Source of the DNA: a virus
DNA length: 64,000 nucleotides
Direction: 5' to 3' (one strand)
IMG/VR virus record: IMGVR_UViG_3300007513_000007
Location: 32,001-96,000 of that record
Shown here piece by piece: positions 5,865-54,349 of the stretch. Position 1 is the stretch's first letter, and every line of letters begins with the position of its first letter. Position numbers and translations under genes: made by a program. Under the pieces are notes generated by a model. That model had not been told where the DNA came from. It did not search any database and worked only from the letters and a program-made list of their open reading frames with translations.

Positions 5865-7064
5865 TTAGTAGCTCTCCTCATCCAGAGCGCCACCAGACAG
5901 ATGGGGGTCGATGAGCCGACGGGCGATGAGCCGGTTGTCAGCATCCAGCTTGTGGGTCCAGGCGCGGAAGGCCCGAGCACCGAACTTGGAGGGCATCGAA
6001 TCGTCCCGGCGAAGCATACGCTCTGCACGGGAGAGGACCGAGCACAGGGCACGGTGGCTGAACTCTGCGTAAAGCTCATCCTTGTCGATGGCTTCGCGGA
6101 GAGCGCGAGTAGCGTTACCCACCTGCTCGATGAACTGGGGAGCCTTCTCGGCCAGGGCCGGGAACTTCTCACGGACGATGATGACCTCATCATCCCAGTG
6201 GAGGTAGGCGAACTGAACGGCGCTGTCGAAGCGGTCCAGGATGGAGGCGTCCAGGCAGCCTGCGCTGACCATACGGCCACGGTCATCACCGGAGCCATTG
6301 GTGTTGGCAGTAGCCACGAACTGCGTTCCGGGGAACACGCTCACGACCTCACCCTCGGGTCCGACGATACGGCCCTGCGTGCTGTCCATGAGCAGCCGAA
6401 GCCACTCGACCTGTGCCGGGTCAGCCCGGTCGAGGTCGGTGAGCACCACGATGGCGGGGCGAGCCACACCGTCACGGCCCATGACACCCTTGGTCACGAC
6501 GTTCCAGAGGTGGCCGAAGTCCCAGCCAGTGCCGTCCTTGTCCATCGAACGCTGGTAGAACCAGGGGCCAATGTCACGGTCAGGAACGATGTTGTTCATG
6601 ACGAGGGGCTTGCGAGCCATGCCAGAGAGGGCCAGCAGGAAGCCGTCCTTTCCGGTTCCGGGGAAGCCCCAGATGTAGACGTTGAGGCCATCAAGAATGT
6701 CCATGATGGCATCCTTCATCATTTCGCGGGCCTTACCCTTGGTGGGGAAGCGGTACGCCTCGGGGATCATGGCGCAGGTATCGGGGTCTGCACCAGCATC
6801 CACCTCGACCTTGAAGCCACAGGCATCGAAGGTCAGGTTGTCGATACCGGGGGCTGCGTTCCGACGCATACCCTTGAACTCGGTCTCGACATGGTCGAGG
6901 TAGTCCTGGCTCACCGTGGGAGCCTTGGGGTACGCAGCGACATACTCGTGCAGAGTCATGCCGTGGTCAGCCGCGAGGTGCGGTCCCAGGAAGTGAGACT
7001 TGTGCCCACAGCCGTCTACTTGGCACTCGGGGCGGGGGTCGATGAGCTTGGGGGTCGGGGTCAT
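5865..7064 (-). CDS. MoxR/CobS-like AAA+ ATPase with N-terminal Zn-finger-like segment
   Basis: Walker A GFPGTGKD, Walker B-like VVLTDLDR, ATANTNG sensor, LDASILDRF; N-terminal C..DGCGH..HL..DHGMTL.EY..YP. Confidence 0.9.
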   Translation of the reverse strand: MTPTPKLIDPRPECQVDGCGHKSHFLGPHLAADHGMTLHEYVAAYPKAPTVSQDYLDHVETEFKGMRRNAAPGIDNLTFDACGFKVEVDAGADPDTCAMIPEAYRFPTKGKAREMMKDAIMDILDGLNVYIWGFPGTGKDGFLLALSGMARKPLVMNNIVPDRDIGPWFYQRSMDKDGTGWDFGHLWNVVTKGVMGRDGVARPAIVVLTDLDRADPAQVEWLRLLMDSTQGRIVGPEGEVVSVFPGTQFVATANTNGSGDDRGRMVSAGCLDASILDRFDSAVQFAYLHWDDEVIIVREKFPALAEKAPQFIEQVGNATRALREAIDKDELYAEFSHRALCSVLSRAERMLRRDDSMPSKFGARAFRAWTHKLDADNRLIARRLIDPHLSGGALDEESY

Positions 7065-7305: not shown

Positions 7306-7476
7306 CTAAATACTGAAGTCGATGATGGCGATGCCGCGCTTGGGAGGGTCCTCGGAAGGGCGCTCCTGCTGCTCTTGGGGCCGACGAGGCTGCGGGGCAT
7401 GGATAGCGGGGCGCTCGCGCTCCTCACGGTTCTCACGCTCTTGTCGCAGTTTCTCGATTTGCCAGGGTTGAAGCAT
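7306..7476 (-). CDS. small charged hypothetical protein (56 aa)
   Basis: MLQPWQIEKLRQERE...; RBS AGGAG; class I motif upstream. Confidence 0.7.
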   Translation of the reverse strand: MLQPWQIEKLRQERENREERERPAIHAPQPRRPQEQQERPSEDPPKRGIAIIDFSI

Positions 7477-7497
7477 CGTTGAATCTCCTGCGCTCCT

Positions 7498-7525
7498 TAC
7501 GGGCCACGAAGGGGGCCGGAACCCC
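7498..7525 (-). promoter_or_regulatory. class I promoter motif
   Basis: exact match upstream of 7476. Confidence 0.8.
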
Positions 7526-11191: not shown

Positions 11192-11219
11192 GGGGTTCCC
11201 GCTCGGAGCCTCTCCCGTA
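11192..11219 (+). promoter_or_regulatory. class I promoter motif
   Basis: exact match directly upstream of an ORF-less structured region. Confidence 0.8.
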
Positions 11220-11226
11220 TAGAGGT

Positions 11227-11830
11227 CAGCACAGCGAGACACCTCGCTGGTAAGTCTCAAGTCCTTGGTCTTTGTTGACCCTGACTGGAAGTGCTGGCTC
11301 ACATGGGACGTTCGAGATCGAAACCATGCAGCGCGGACGGATACGGAGAGAAGACCAGGGCAACCTCTTTGACATTCAAGTAAGTGTTTTGAGTAGCGAT
11401 CCGTATGGTCAGGGGTAAGGAAACGACCCCTCTTGGTGAGTTAGAGTCTCATCCGGTTCAAAGTAACCGAAGGGCGAATCGAGAGCAGCCCGACCCTCTA
11501 TAAGTGCCGCGCAACCCGTGACGAGCGGGGGAGGGTGCGGATTGAAGGTTCCTGTGGCGGTCGCGAACGTCACAGAAGCACCTTGGGGCGGGAGCCTCAA
11601 GGGGAACAGAAGCACGGCCCACTCTGTGGAGGCCATATCCAGGTCAGAAGCAGAGCGTCGTGTTCTACTCAAAACCCTTACTTGAATGCCAAGGAAACGC
11701 ATCACCAATAGAGCCGTTGATCCGCTTGATTGCGAGTAAAGGACCCCGCCAGGGGTCAGACGGTCATGTTCTCGGACGAAGGGTGATGTAGCGAGACAGC
11801 CTGCCGAGATTCAGGTCCTCGCTTCCCTTG
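11227..11830 (+). ncRNA. candidate large structured ncRNA 1 (family unknown)
   Basis: No credible ORF; 26/28-bp long-range helix 11369-11396/11665-11692; about 8 further hairpins, one capped by a GGGA tetraloop; CAGAAGCA x3; own promoter motif. Ends approximate. Confidence 0.75.
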
Positions 11831-11919
11831 GACCTCGGACATATTCTGTCCGGGTTCCATAAAATCGCCCCTCTGGGGGTGTACAAGCCCGATTCTGTGA
11901 TAAGATTTATTTCGAGAGG

Positions 11920-17582: not shown

Positions 17583-18208
17583 GGGTCCAGCAACGTGACT
17601 ATGCACCTTCCCTCGAAGGTGGTTCCGATGGGGAAGTTGACTCCATCATTCGGGTTTTGGATGAAGAACACGAACTGGGCAGGCGTAGGCCCAGAGGCCG
17701 CGACGTATGTAACGGAGCAACCCGCGTCGATAGGGCCGATCCCCGTGGAGGCTGAAGCGCCTCCGATTTTGTCGATGTTCCCAGACTGGAGGGTTTCATC
17801 GGTGGCGAAGACGTACTCTCCGATTTCACTGTTGCTGGTGCCTTGGGCCTTCATGTGGACCGTGATTCGACCGCCTACGAAGTCTGAAGCAGTGTAGACG
17901 AGCACCTCGATGTTTTCTTGGACCGCTGTGGAGGTCGTATGGGTGAACTGCTCGCAGAACACCCTGCCGCAGGAGTACACCGAAGCCAACTGATGGACTT
18001 CTGCCCACTGGCGTTCCGTGCCTGGGGTCCCGTCCCCGCTGTGCCCCAGGTTCCTGGTGAGGTTCGCGTCTGGAGTGAGGTCCGATGCGATTGATGCTGT
18101 GACCTCAAGGGTGTCTGTTGCCTCATCGTTCCCGATGGTCATGCTTCCAGGAACATCCAGGTGGTCGATGTCGATCCCGATAGCGTCAGTGATCAATACT
18201 CTGGGCAT
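17579..18208 (-). CDS. hypothetical protein, beta-rich, possibly structural
   Basis: 209 aa ORF translationally coupled on both sides. Confidence 0.8.
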   Translation of the reverse strand: MPRVLITDAIGIDIDHLDVPGSMTIGNDEATDTLEVTASIASDLTPDANLTRNLGHSGDGTPGTERQWAEVHQLASVYSCGRVFCEQFTHTTSTAVQENIEVLVYTASDFVGGRITVHMKAQGTSNSEIGEYVFATDETLQSGNIDKIGGASASTGIGPIDAGCSVTYVAASGPTPAQFVFFIQNPNDGVNFPIGTTFEGRCIVTLLDP

Positions 18209-18825
18209 CAGGACCTCATAGACCAGCGTAGAGCCACGCTGGCAGCATTAGGGGTGGAAGCCCAGCGCCGAGTCGGATGTCTGCGCCGCCCCCGTGGCTT
18301 TATGGGATTGCGCGGGGGCTTCCTCCGACCGGATTTATCCGTCCAGGAACTCCCGGAGTTGGCGAAGTTGTCTCGCATGTATTTCTCGGCGGCTTCTTCC
18401 GACATGAATGGCCCGTAAGAGGACATGTCCCCTTCGATCTGGTAGCCATCCTCGTCTTCTTGGTAGTCCTCATTATCGACGTACCACTTGCCGTCTGACG
18501 CCTTGTAGAACTCCCGCTCGGTGTTGGTGCTTCCCTTTTTCTTTTTCTTGATCTTGCCCTTCCAGTAGGACTTCGCATCGGAGCGGGCATCAGGGGATTC
18601 TTTCTTGTTCTTCTGACGCCAACCGGGCATCTGCCAGTCAGCAAGGCCACCGCAAAAGGCACCAGGGTTGCTGATGTTGTCGGTCATCTTCTCGATGCAG
18701 TCCCAGACCTTGTGTTCAGGCGTGCCTTTACCCAGCGTCTTCCAGAACTTCTTGACGGACTTATCCGTCCATCCCGGAGGGAGGTTCTTCCATTTCTTGG
18801 CTACGCGGGCAGCGGATGGCTTCAT
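18208..18825 (-). CDS. hypothetical protein with RVA-like tags at both ends
   Basis: start re-picked at ATG 18825: MKPSAARVAKKW...NAASVALRWSMRS. Confidence 0.8.
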   Translation of the reverse strand: MKPSAARVAKKWKNLPPGWTDKSVKKFWKTLGKGTPEHKVWDCIEKMTDNISNPGAFCGGLADWQMPGWRQKNKKESPDARSDAKSYWKGKIKKKKKGSTNTEREFYKASDGKWYVDNEDYQEDEDGYQIEGDMSSYGPFMSEEAAEKYMRDNFANSGSSWTDKSGRRKPPRNPIKPRGRRRHPTRRWASTPNAASVALRWSMRS

Positions 18826-18850
18826 GGGATTCCTTCCCCCTTCCGAAAGG

Positions 18851-18865
18851 ATAGGAACCTTACCG
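18851..18865 (-). promoter_or_regulatory. class II motif CGGT-N7-CTAT
   Basis: CGGTAAGGTTCCTAT upstream of 18825. Confidence 0.6.
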
Positions 18866-18882
18866 TGCCCCAAATAAGAGAG

Positions 18883-19645
18883 GGGGCCACCCTTTCGGAT
18901 GACCCCCTCATGAGGGAACAAACAAGCACACATGCACTTGCTCCCAGCCGTGACCTCCAAGCCTTTTGAGCCTGTCCCCGTTCGGGTTAGGAGTGTGAAC
19001 ACCAGCAAGTAAAGCTGTTCACGACGTTCCTCCCTGTTCTTCGCAGTCTCCTACGACGGAACAGCACGCGATACTGCTGCCTACATTCTGTGTATCGGAG
19101 GGTAAGCTGTACACTTCTCCCTTCCTCCACACGACAACCTTTGATCTCTTGGGAAGATCGCCACTTGCCCCCTTTCGGGACGGTTGCCAGATTGCTCTGA
19201 CAACCAGAGAGGCTTCTGCATTCAGCAGTCCGATTCTGGGGAACAACCCCCTTCCCAAGACTTTGTTCTTGGTTATTGCCCTGCAACCGTTTCCTCAGTG
19301 AATCAGCAAGTCCGAGGATGCCCTTCGCAGCACTCCGACAGTGGAATGTCGGCTCATGCTCTGGACCACTGGGTGATTCTCGGAGCAACCACGCTCCATA
19401 ACTCACCCCCCTTCATAGTCAGGCGGCAGAGTGTGTGAACACCCCTTTCCTGAACAGGGTTCTGGCTACCTCCCGAAGGAGCCGACGACCCGGCAAGGGT
19501 ACGAAGGTTTTAGGACCCGTCAGCAGGGTCCACTCGCCACCCCTGCAAGCAGGAGCTTTGAGATTCGTTGAAACTGTAAAAGAACTATGCCGCTCTATGG
19601 TGACGGCTACCTGTTTTTTGGCGCTCTGCCAGTCATCAATGACTT
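18883..19645 (-). ncRNA. candidate large structured ncRNA 2 (family unknown)
   Basis: No credible ORF; cUUCGg, GCAA and two GAAA tetraloop hairpins on the minus strand plus at least 4 more stems; exact class I motif at 19654-19681 points into it. Ends approximate. Confidence 0.7.
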
Positions 19646-19652
19646 GTAACCT

Positions 19653-20054
19653 CTACGCGGTCACACTACCAAGGGAACCCCCCCTCAAAACCTTTTCTGC
19701 ATTTTTCAACGCACGCCACGCAGGACGGCCCTTCTTCTCGATCCAACGGTTAGCGACAGCAATAACATGCTTGCACGCTCCAGCACGCCCGTGGTCGGGG
19801 CACGAGCAGCTATGCCGACGTACCGCGTTCCGGTCGATGCTGATGGTCACCATGTAGTCCTGACGGCCCCTACAGAGAGCACGGAGGCCATGCTGACCAT
19901 CCCTGGCCCAAACGATATGGACACCGCTTGCACGGTACACGCGGCCAGTCTCGGACACCTTGATGAGTGCCCGCAGCCCACGCCCACGGTCTTCGACCTG
20001 GGAGATAGCCCACAAGAGGGACTCGGCTGCGCTCTTGGTGATGGTTCCTTTCAT
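19653..20054 (-). CDS. SWIM zinc-finger protein
   Basis: HSCSCPDH....CKHVIAV (CxC..CxH); start re-picked at ATG 20054. Confidence 0.85.
   Translation of the reverse strand: MKGTITKSAAESLLWAISQVEDRGRGLRALIKVSETGRVYRASGVHIVWARDGQHGLRALCRGRQDYMVTISIDRNAVRRHSCSCPDHGRAGACKHVIAVANRWIEKKGRPAWRALKNAEKVLRGGSLGSVTA
19654..19681 (-). promoter_or_regulatory. class I promoter motif
   Basis: exact match; -10 box overlaps the SWIM stop codon. Confidence 0.8.
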
Positions 20055-20073
20055 CGGGACCTCCTGCTCTCCT

Positions 20074-20592
20074 TTACGCGGAAGGAGGGGTATCAGAACC
20101 CCCCTCCGCAGCTTCCGCAGCAATCTTTTTCAGGTACTCGGCACTCGCCTTGGATTCAACGGCTGCATTAGCAACTACGGTGGGGTGATCCTCCCCCATG
20201 TCCTCTGTCACGAACCCTGCATGGACGAACCTCTCGCCATCAGAGTTCACGAGGTGGCTGTCATCGTCACAGTGAAAGTGTGCGTACCAGATGGTCGGGC
20301 CATCCCCTTCCTCAGTACTCCTCGTAGCCTCGAAGTAGGTGGGCTTCTTCAACCCCTCGTACCACTCCTTGACGCCTTCCTCGTTGAAGTGCTCCAGGTA
20401 GAACTCCTGGGGTGCTGCCACGCTCTCATGCAGGGTTCCAGGGAGGGTTTCCATGGTGTGGAAGAAGAACCTCATCACGGAGTCAAGGTTCTGCCACCAT
20501 GTCGTCAGTTCTTCGGCGGTGAAGCCTGTTTCCCAGACCCAATGCCGATAGCCGTATTCTTCTTGGACGTAGACCGTAATGAGGTCGCTCAA
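20074..20592 (-). CDS. acidic hypothetical protein
   Basis: start re-picked at TTG 20592, overlapping the HNH stop (TTGA). Confidence 0.7.
   Translation of the reverse strand: MSDLITVYVQEEYGYRHWVWETGFTAEELTTWWQNLDSVMRFFFHTMETLPGTLHESVAAPQEFYLEHFNEEGVKEWYEGLKKPTYFEATRSTEEGDGPTIWYAHFHCDDDSHLVNSDGERFVHAGFVTEDMGEDHPTVVANAAVESKASAEYLKKIAAEAAEGGSDTPPSA
20075..20102 (-). promoter_or_regulatory. class I promoter motif (GGGGTTCT variant)
   Basis: N16 spacing, upstream of 20054. Confidence 0.7.
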
Positions 20593-39452: not shown

Positions 39453-40571
39453 TCATGCGGTCACCTGAATAAAGAGGCGCTTGCCCACCCTTACTACGGA
39501 ACCTCTGGCCGGAATGGCCTCTACATCCTGACACTTTTCGCCGTCAATCCTGACACCGCCGCCTTGAATAAGTTTGCGGGCCTTGGAGCGGCTCTCACCG
39601 CGTGCTTCAGCCACAAGGGCTACCAAGGGTCCCTGTGCAACCGAAGGGAGGTCAGAGGGCACCTCACGCCGCTGCACGGATGCCTCGAAGTGAGCCTGCG
39701 CCTTGTCAGCGGCAGCCTCGCCGTGAAGCTGGCGAACAATGTCCCACGCCAACAGCTTCTTGTGCTTCATGGGGTGTGCGGGAAACTCCGTGATGGATGT
39801 CAGTAGACCTGCCCATTCTTGAGCGACCTCATCGGAAACGGACATGACCTTTCCGAACATCTGCTCGGGGGCCTCGTCCAACCAGATGGCGTTGTCGAAG
39901 CTCTTGCTCATCTTGCGGCCATCGGTTCCCCGAATCACAGGGGTCATGATGCAGCTTTGAGGCGCTTGGCCTTCGGCTTCCTGAAGCTGGCGAGCGACCT
40001 GGAAGTTGAACAGTTGGTCGGTCCCGCCGATCTCGACCTCGGCCCGGACCTCTACAGAGTCCCACCCTTGAAGCAGGGGCACCAGGAACTCGTGAAGGGC
40101 GATGGCTTGACCGGCATCGTTACGCCGACGGAAGCCATCACGGGACAGCATGTTTGCCACAGTGATCTTGCTTGCAAGGCGGGTGAGGAAGAACGGGACA
40201 CTCATGGCGTCCACGAACTCATGGTTCCGATGAACCTGGAATCCGGGGAGCAGCACCTGCTCTACTTGCTTCAGTAGCGCCTCGGCGTTCTGCCGAACCT
40301 CGTTCTCCGAAAGGATGGGCCGTGTCTTGTCCTGCCCCGACGGGTCACCCAAAGCAGCCGTGATGGTGCCAAGGATGAGGTGCAGGTCGTGACCCTGCTC
40401 CTGCATTTCGCGGGCAACACGAAGGGGAACGAAGTGTCCCAGGTGCAGCCGATCCCTTGTGGGGTCGATGCCGAACTTCACTCGCAAGGGGTGTGAGCTA
40501 CGACTGATGCGCTCCGTCGCTGTCGGAGGGAAGATAAACCAACCCCCGAAGAGCGTCTTCTGCGCCCTCAC
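39453..40571 (-). CDS. tyrS: tyrosyl-tRNA synthetase
   Basis: KFGIDPT..LHLGH (HIGH), LQGWDSV, EIGGTDQLFN, KMSKS, C-terminal S4-like domain. Confidence 0.95.
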   Translation of the reverse strand: MRAQKTLFGGWFIFPPTATERISRSSHPLRVKFGIDPTRDRLHLGHFVPLRVAREMQEQGHDLHLILGTITAALGDPSGQDKTRPILSENEVRQNAEALLKQVEQVLLPGFQVHRNHEFVDAMSVPFFLTRLASKITVANMLSRDGFRRRNDAGQAIALHEFLVPLLQGWDSVEVRAEVEIGGTDQLFNFQVARQLQEAEGQAPQSCIMTPVIRGTDGRKMSKSFDNAIWLDEAPEQMFGKVMSVSDEVAQEWAGLLTSITEFPAHPMKHKKLLAWDIVRQLHGEAAADKAQAHFEASVQRREVPSDLPSVAQGPLVALVAEARGESRSKARKLIQGGGVRIDGEKCQDVEAIPARGSVVRVGKRLFIQVTA

Positions 40572-46322: not shown

Positions 46323-46400
46323 TGGCTGGGGCGGTTGGACTCGAACCAACAATCTCCGGGGTAACAACCCGGCGTCCTTGCCTATTAGGACCTCACCCCA
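46323..46400 (-). tRNA. tRNA-Asn(GTT)
   Basis: Full cloverleaf: acceptor TGGGGTG/CGCCCCA, D stem GTCC/GGAC, anticodon stem CCGGG/CCCGG with loop TTGTTAC, T arm GTTGG-TTCGAGT-CCAAC, discriminator G, encoded CCA. Confidence 0.95.
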
Positions 46401-52833: not shown

Positions 52834-52975
52834 GCAGCACCTGCAATCCCGTTCGGCCTCGTGTTGCCTACTGGGGACCGTCCCACTGTGTCGCGTGAGC
52901 CGCCTTCTTACACGAAGCCTGAATCCGGTCTTGAAGAAGGTAAGTCACCGGGCACTCGCGTGGGCTTATTCCCTC

Positions 52976-53003
52976 TACGGTCGAAGTAGGAAAGGGGAAC
53001 CCC
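52976..53003 (-). promoter_or_regulatory. class I promoter motif with no long ORF downstream
   Basis: exact match pointing into 52780-52970. Confidence 0.75.
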
Positions 53004-53963: not shown

Positions 53964-54349
53964 ACCCCGAAAGGTTTTTCACCTCTCGTAGCTCTATACG
54001 GCAGACGTGTTGAACCGGAACCCCACCCTGTTTTCTACAACAGGGTCCTCAAAGCATGATTCGACAGGCCGAAAAAGTAAGACTTCTTCCGGTTTTTCTG
54101 ATGGTCGTGAAGGTGTCCTCGAAAACCCGCGTAGAACCTGGGTTTTCAAGAGTGCCTTTTTTGCCCAAAACCTGATCTTTTCAAAAGGCCCTCTTCAAAG
54201 GGTCAGCCTTTGTTGCAGGGGGCTTCTGCTTTGAGGGTTTCGGCGGCTCCCTGCGTGGCGGCCAGAACGGGGCATCGACCCGCAGTGGCGGGTCCCACTT
54301 CCCTTGGAACCAAGGGTGGTTTGGGATGAAGTCGAAGTTGGACACTTCG

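Follow-up and report, generated by a model that had tools for sequence, protein, structure and literature searches.

A candidate family of large structured non-coding RNAs encoded by a small clade of huge uncultivated phages

Introduction

What is made from a stretch of phage DNA that lies behind an apparent promoter and leads to no credible gene for more than 800 nt? This question is raised by the DNA analysed here (the window), a stretch of 64,000 nt that corresponds to bases 32001-96000 of a 180,576-bp IMG/VR virus record. On its minus strand, the first credible gene start after a promoter-like motif at 19681 is the ATG at 18825, 826 nt downstream. The CheckV completeness of the record is 40%, so that the genome of this phage is probably larger than 400 kb, and the majority of the phage proteins lack a match to a Pfam or PHROG family. 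An earlier note on this DNA had inferred a large non-coding RNA on the minus strand of the region. Apart from rRNA, introns and RNase P, few RNA classes of bacteria or phages are known to exceed 500 nt (OLE, GOLLD, ROOL and a few others). Here we describe the homologues, predicted structure and genomic context of this RNA and weigh the explanations that may account for it.

Distribution of the RNA

The region had no BLAST match in 50,697 GenBank phages. Relatives recovered via the downstream protein P0001, DUF5131 and a 371-aa neighbour shared protein modules only, and the RNA was absent from these loci according to nhmmer and blastn. A BLAST search against the whole records behind the neighbour-protein loci identified an 82%-identical copy in the 297-kb IMG/VR record G001. 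More copies were obtained by scanning metagenome and IMG/VR contigs with words common to the window and G001 copies, namely three of the G001 type (L021, L039 and L049), the copies L025 and L040, and the copies L068 and L069 on records of 152 kb and 58 kb, respectively. The L039 copy is located on the 552,571-bp metagenome contig Ga0080013_1000001, a length that puts these phages within the 'megaphage' size range. The homologue search suggested in the earlier note therewith added five distinct homologues, all on contigs of huge phages (552 kb for the longest), and the resulting six distinct variants, including that of the window, have pairwise identities of 70-88%.

All copies reside on IMG/VR virus records or metagenome contigs of at most 552 kb and belong to a few huge phages with a G+C content of 51-59%. 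Added IMG/VR scans with other conserved words returned the same three records only. In species-representative prokaryote genomes all nine word-scan matches were due to chance, and no prophage or host copy was found. A covariance model (R1) built on the 213 nt of highest conservation scored 246-253 bits, on G000 and G001 only; it detected no paralogue in the phage's own genome and none in G002-G004. The complete 375-kb relative G002 is without the RNA, which is thus not essential to the wider lineage. As judged by these searches, the RNA family is real but narrow.

Among the 34 metagenome word matches, 29 were rejected as an unrelated AT-rich gene that has a 20-mer in common by chance (loci L022-L024, L026-L038, L041-L048 and L050-L054). 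The 29 metagenome contigs on which the AT-rich gene carries this 20-mer, GAATGTAGGCAGCAGTATCG, are up to 575 kb long; the matches are chance, multiplied by one well-sampled lineage, and call for caution in word-based scans.

IMG/VR has been mined for structured RNAs by Fremin et al. 2023 (PMC10690425), where motifs average 67 nt and the bit score is capped at 200. A homologue pair of the RNA described here scores 692 bits and therefore lies outside this cap, and the article, supplementary tables aside, gives no sign of the RNA (PMC10690425).

Secondary structure

A consensus structure was predicted with RNAalifold on the alignment of the six sequences (A6). The conserved core comprises about 706 nt (19585-18880, minus strand) and the entire gene about 720-770 nt (18870-19650, minus strand), with the following features from 5' to 3':

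19651-19681, minus strand: phage-specific promoter-like motif GGGGTTCC-N17-GTAGAG, exact match
19586-19650, minus strand: variable, unconserved leader of about 60 nt; homology begins at GUUCUUU (19585)
19578-19585, minus strand: 5' strand of P1 (GUUCUUUU), closing the 5' domain; pairs with 19026-19033
19236-19577, minus strand: less conserved 5' region with H2-H15; 57% of columns invariant
19069-19232, minus strand: highly conserved central multi-helix domain with H16-H23; 68% of columns invariant
19034-19064, minus strand: H24, a 12-bp hairpin with a GNRA loop (GAGA or GAAA); 100% of cells paired
19026-19033, minus strand: 3' strand of P1 (GGAGGAAC), invariant in six of six homologues
18947-19025, minus strand: 3' domain II, where H25 closes a junction of the four hairpins H26-H29; 78.5% of columns invariant
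18914-18945, minus strand: H30/H31 hairpin; two compensatory pairs in H30
18880-18909, minus strand: terminal 13-bp hairpin with a GAAA loop, flagged terminator-like; probable intrinsic terminator stem
18870-18879, minus strand: U-rich tail (UCUUAUUUGG) directly 3' of the terminal hairpin

The predicted structure consists of 214 pairs in about 32 helices. Across these pairs, 97.5% of the cells are standard base pairs, and 53 pairs (91 cells) have changed on both sides in a compensatory manner; the six sequences come from one narrow clade, and the covariation events are therefore few and partly common by descent. As a control, the 3' partners were slid by 1-3 columns, which left 39-47% of the cells paired and 3-9 pairs changed on both sides, and none of 500 shuffles reached the observed values. 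Earlier, smaller alignments of two and four sequences had contained 27 and 40 compensatory pairs, respectively. The minimum for the minus-strand fold of the region was -323 kcal/mol (z = -4.96) vs -268 kcal/mol (z = -2.13) for the plus strand. The large minus-strand RNA of the earlier note, for which covariation had been named as a check, is thus borne out by five homologues with compensatory changes. Its argument that G-U pairs indicate the minus strand holds as well, as many G-U pairs are invariant, including four of the eight pairs of P1 (G-U or U-G). P1 encloses about 560 nt and is paired in 95.7% of its cells. We consider it almost certain that 18870-19650 on the minus strand is a real non-coding RNA gene.

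The helices H6, H8, H9, H10, H11, H13, H16, H18, H20, H23, H24, H26, H29, H30 and H32 are well supported. In the 5' region, H6, H8, H9, H10, H11 and H13 each have 2-6 pairs changed on both sides. Compensatory pairs are likewise present in H16, H18, H20 and H23 of the central domain and in H26 (three) and H29 (one) of domain II, while H24 (four pairs) and the otherwise conserved terminal hairpin (two pairs) have theirs in L068/L069. H2, H3, H12 and H14 are without covariation support and shifted between the four- and six-sequence folds; the long-range helices H2 and H3 contain several unpaired cells, and H12 and H14 no changes on both sides.

The 3' part of the RNA is better conserved than the 5' part (70% vs 57% invariant columns). 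In the central domain, the GCAA and GAAA tetraloops and the loop CCCAA are invariant, and domain II contains the invariant 22-mer GGUGUUCACACUCCUAACCCGA. The loops UUCCAC and CAAAA are invariant too, and a 13-nt loop is nearly so. Two loops vary within the GNRA class only (GAGA/GAAA and GAGA/GGAA/GCAA), with GAAC in the window copy of H28 as the exception. The loop of H23 carries the palindrome GUAC, which reads UGUACA in three variants. Invariant blocks of 48-87 nt include unpaired junctions; among the first four variants, such blocks are at most 48 nt long. Variable columns make up 34.5% of the unpaired vs 37.9% of the paired positions. Loops and junctions are conserved to the same degree as stems, which points to tertiary contacts or contacts with a partner.

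All hairpins that the earlier note had listed were found on the minus strand, where it had placed them, by direct reading of 18600-19900:

19483-19469, minus strand: hairpin GGCUCC-UUCG-GGAG
19205-19182, minus strand: hairpin GGUUGUCAGA-GCAA-UCUGGCAACC
19179-19170, minus strand: hairpin CCC-GAAA-GGG
18906-18883, minus strand: hairpin GGGGUCAUCC-GAAA-GGGUGGCCCC
19531-19513, minus strand: stem GGACCC/GGGUCC
19352-19335, minus strand: stem CCGACA/UGUCGG
19397-19382, minus strand: stem GGAGC/GCUCC
19159-19143, minus strand: stem GAUCU/AGAUC

A repeat of GGUGUUCACAC had also been pointed out there. Its 3' copy (19002-18990) is invariant in six of six homologues, whereas the 5' copy (19443-19429) varies among them, so that the repeat is probably coincidental. 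A search for pseudoknots supported by covariation gave weak candidates only; the best one, pairing of the H13 loop UUGCU with AGCAA of H18, is unconvincing. Three copies of the word (C/U)UGCUGA are present, in the loops of H4 (19526-19519) and H13 (19311-19299) and in the 5' strand of H16 (19230-19223). The sequence CAGCAG, part of the 3' strand of H16, is complementary to all of them, which may permit alternative or intermolecular pairing.

Transcription unit

The motif ahead of the RNA, described earlier as a class I motif at 19654-19681, proved to be exact and unique as a 28-mer. It belongs to a family GGGGGTTCC-N17-CGTAKWG (GGGGTTCC-N17-GTAKWG) of fixed spacing, with 16 copies in the window vs 0.02 expected and 19 copies in the whole record. 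For ten of the 16 copies, a ribosome binding site (RBS) and an ORF follow on the same strand after 14-66 nt, as would fit a phage-specific promoter, and we infer that the motif acts as one. In five of the six homologues, a variant of the motif is found 10-65 nt upstream of the RNA, the one of G001 being a weaker variant. The leader between motif and RNA is 10-63 nt long in four of the other homologues and about 200 nt in L069, where the motif precedes two repeats that resemble a tRNA T-arm. This L069 leader (6505-6706) contains two copies of GGTTCGGGTTCGACCCCCGGCA (T-arm-like) as well as GAGAGTTGGAACACC.

Two other exact motifs of the window, at 52973-53003 and 53994-54024 (both minus strand), are not followed, within the next 400 nt, by an RBS with an ORF of 50 aa or more and seem to be antisense to ORFs of the plus strand. 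They may indicate additional transcripts, non-coding or antisense, or else genes that were mis-called.

At the other end, the terminal hairpin has the hallmarks of an intrinsic terminator, namely a 13-bp stem with nine G-C pairs followed by the tail TCTTATTTGG. It forms the end of the conserved block in five of six homologues, L025 being cut off by the end of its contig, and a U-rich tail follows in all complete copies (UCUUUUUUU, i.e. T7, in L069). In the homologues that have their ends on the contig, the conserved stretch runs from P1 to the terminal hairpin, and the flanks are unrelated. G001 contains a second canonical terminator hairpin and a T7 stretch thereafter, followed by a new promoter motif before the next gene. 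The RNA would thus be transcribed from the phage promoter class GGGGGTTCC-N17-CGTAGAG, perhaps read by a phage sigma factor, and transcription would stop at the terminal hairpin and its U-rich tail. On the basis of these boundaries, it very probably forms a transcription unit of its own.

Genomic context

In the window, the RNA is flanked by two protein-coding genes on the same strand:

19653-20123, minus strand: upstream neighbour, gene of a SWIM zinc-finger protein (Pfam PF04434, E = 1e-5)
18208-18825, minus strand: downstream neighbour, gene of a 205-aa protein of unknown family with its own RBS

In the G001 type, a 34%-identical SWIM gene is present upstream of the RNA with two small ORFs in between. 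Upstream of the RNA, L025 has a VWA-gene cluster and L069 patatin-like and fatty-acid-hydroxylase genes. None of the other homologues has the gene of the 205-aa protein downstream of the RNA; this place is taken by a metallophosphoesterase in G001 and by a convergent tRNA-Asn gene in L069. The neighbours differ between the phages, which argues against both a cis-regulatory leader and an intron. As a separate observation, residues 1-106 and 94-181 of the 205-aa protein recur as modules in proteins of 516-851 aa in related phages (loci L002-L008).

The orthologous proteins of these phages have amino-acid identities of 28-54%, and the RNA has a nucleotide identity of 70-82%. Judged by these identities, the RNA is among the slowest-evolving loci of these genomes.

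The window encodes a tyrosyl-tRNA synthetase homologue (39453-40571, minus strand; phrog_9270, E = 3e-68) and, as its sole tRNA, a tRNA-Asn(GTT) at 46323-46400 (minus strand), 27 kb from the RNA. In L069, the RNA abuts the convergent tRNA-Asn(GTT) gene (7442-7517). This is the only tRNA-adjacent copy, as five of the six copies are not near tRNAs.

The earlier note refers to another candidate large RNA, ncRNA 1; this region of the window (11226-11905, plus strand) lies behind a motif at 11192. The view that the two are dissimilar in sequence stands, and with the conserved-domain covariance model no second copy of the present RNA was found in the genome. The suggestion that both RNAs may act together found no support: ncRNA 1 has no BLAST match in G001-G004, including the relatives that carry the RNA, and no nhmmer match in any fetched locus. 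The complementarity between the two RNAs is unexceptional (-388 kcal/mol vs -390 +/- 9 kcal/mol for shuffles). A placement of ncRNA 1 beside the RNA in L025 was rejected, since the gap there holds small ORFs.

Comparison with known large RNAs

The comparison with Rfam proposed in the earlier note gave no match to a known RNA family. With the 4,227 models of Rfam 15, cmscan found no match within the RNA at the gathering threshold, none in 18700-19800 of the window at E <= 10, and none in four homologues at E <= 5, permissive filters included; five homologues were thus searched in total, the window copy among them. ARAGORN found no tmRNA. By this measure, membership of the RNA in GOLLD, ROOL, OLE, raiA, RNase P, the group I/II introns, tmRNA or any of the ribozyme families is not detectable. 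A stretch CGAAAGUC...ACAGAAUCGGACU recalls what we take to be the CR-I/CR-V elements of RNase P; this resemblance was rejected, as its GGACUGCUG part is held in H16, with a compensatory pair, and no Rfam match was obtained.

The phi29 pRNA, another phage-encoded RNA, with a structural role, is about 120-174 nt long, has a single three-way junction and multimerises by intermolecular loop-loop pairing. There is no sequence or model similarity between the two, and the present RNA has no link to packaging genes.

[quoted passage not shown] GOLLD is an ornate RNA of about 800 nt in phages and prophages, with members in marine metagenomes and some copies near tRNAs, and with stronger conservation in the 3' than in the 5' region (PMC12286853). 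ROOL, also from phages and prophages, is about 580 nt long and has many hairpins and pseudoknots but no known protein partner (PMC12286853). By cryo-EM, both form RNA-only cages via kissing loops and A-minor contacts (PMC12286853). The present RNA resembles GOLLD (RF01998) in being phage-borne, ornate and of similar size (about 706-770 nt vs about 800 nt), in the better conservation of its 3' part and in the one copy, that of L069, beside a tRNA-Asn gene. It differs in the lack of a covariance-model match, in its helices and conserved words, in its usual location away from tRNA islands and in its confinement to a few huge phages of 51-59% G+C. With ROOL (RF03087) it has in common the phage origin and an ornate fold with many hairpins; however, it is longer, has another architecture, has a tRNA beside one copy only and does not match the model. 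OLE, about 600 nt in length, is a non-coding RNA in which covarying helices are separated by long invariant stretches (PMC9723947). In size and in these invariant stretches it is similar to the present RNA, yet it is chromosomal in Bacillota and acts with the OapA/B/C proteins at the membrane, whereas the present RNA is found in phages, has no conserved neighbouring protein gene and does not match the OLE model.

Alternative explanations

The main rival to an RNA scaffold is a large ribozyme, either self-processing or acting in trans, e.g. on RNA or tRNA substrates. The size, the multi-domain architecture and the invariant blocks that include unpaired junctions are characteristic traits of large ribozymes, and OLE-class RNAs have been proposed as ribozymes for these reasons (PMC11332333). 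The L069 copy, moreover, is located between tRNA-like elements and a tRNA gene. However, the Rfam models of ribozymes, introns and RNase P had no match in the five homologues searched (E <= 5-10), and neither a substrate nor a cleavage site is evident, so that we regard a ribozyme as improbable.

A highly divergent member of GOLLD or ROOL would account for the phage origin, for a length in the range of 700-800 nt, for the better conserved 3' part, as described for GOLLD (PMC12286853), and for the copy beside a tRNA gene. The missing cmscan match in all five homologues, even at the permissive settings, and the location of five of six copies away from tRNAs make such a membership very unlikely.

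Slightly less probable still is a long cis-acting 5' leader of the gene at 18825, similar to an attenuator or riboswitch. The RNA does lie between a promoter motif and the next gene of that strand, whose transcription the terminal hairpin could attenuate. In other phages, however, the gene that such a leader would control is a different one or, in L069, a convergent tRNA gene, G001 has a second terminator and a fresh promoter motif before the next gene, and about 700 nt with 32 helices are far beyond known leaders.

Large structured phage RNAs with GNRA loops are often introns, and the genomic position of the present RNA differs between phages. A group I/II intron or another mobile RNA element is nevertheless extremely unlikely, since the RNA matches no Rfam intron model, is flanked by complete, unrelated genes rather than by the halves of one, has no ORF for a reverse transcriptase or homing endonuclease within or adjoining it, and is equipped with its own promoter motif and terminator.

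Finally, the reading that the region contains a protein-coding gene or several small ORFs, perhaps with an unusual genetic code or frame, can practically be dismissed: single sequences do have open stretches of 130-149 codons, the longest frame of the window copy being a GTG-initiated ORF of 139 aa (18987-19406), but no frame is open across all six sequences, the 139-aa frame is interrupted in the homologues, its variable sites number 53/44/39 at codon positions 1/2/3 with the least variation at the third, indels are mostly of 1-2 nt and thus frame-breaking, its Cys/Arg-rich translation looks random, and the 53 compensatory pairs speak for an RNA, in agreement with the earlier note, which had seen no credible ORF here.

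Proposed role

Overall, we consider it likely that the locus is a free-standing gene of a structured non-coding RNA, that this RNA represents a previously undescribed family of a small clade of very large uncultivated phages, and that a scaffold acting in trans is the best guess for its function. An action in trans that would depend on the three-dimensional fold is suggested by four to six conserved GNRA tetraloops, by long loops that are invariant and by internal loops resembling receptors, and we hold it to be probable. By analogy, the RNA would most likely be an architectural particle or scaffold, as is thought for GOLLD and ROOL, made during infection and composed of RNA only or of RNA and proteins. 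A homo-oligomeric, cage-like assembly is a tentative possibility; the palindromic GUAC/UGUACA loop of H23 and the GNRA loops are compatible with it and may be taken as hints. The RNA may also touch the translation apparatus. This tie is only a hint, which the tyrosyl-tRNA synthetase and tRNA genes of the phage and the tRNA context of the L069 copy provide. We further regard it as conceivable, though rather unlikely, that the RNA constitutes a third independent class of self-assembling phage RNAs, from phages of 450-550 kb, or a new class of large ribozymes, and acts on the translation or RNA machinery of the host.

The size and complexity of the RNA are on a par with those of GOLLD and ROOL, rare phage RNAs termed "ornate". 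A new class of about 700 nt would join a short list, with a structure backed by covariation, clean unit boundaries and a slower evolution than that of the phage proteins. The RNA is an immediate candidate for structure determination and an independent example for what large phage RNAs do. As its host phages are huge and carry translation genes, the suspected link between such RNAs and translation would become testable in a second system.
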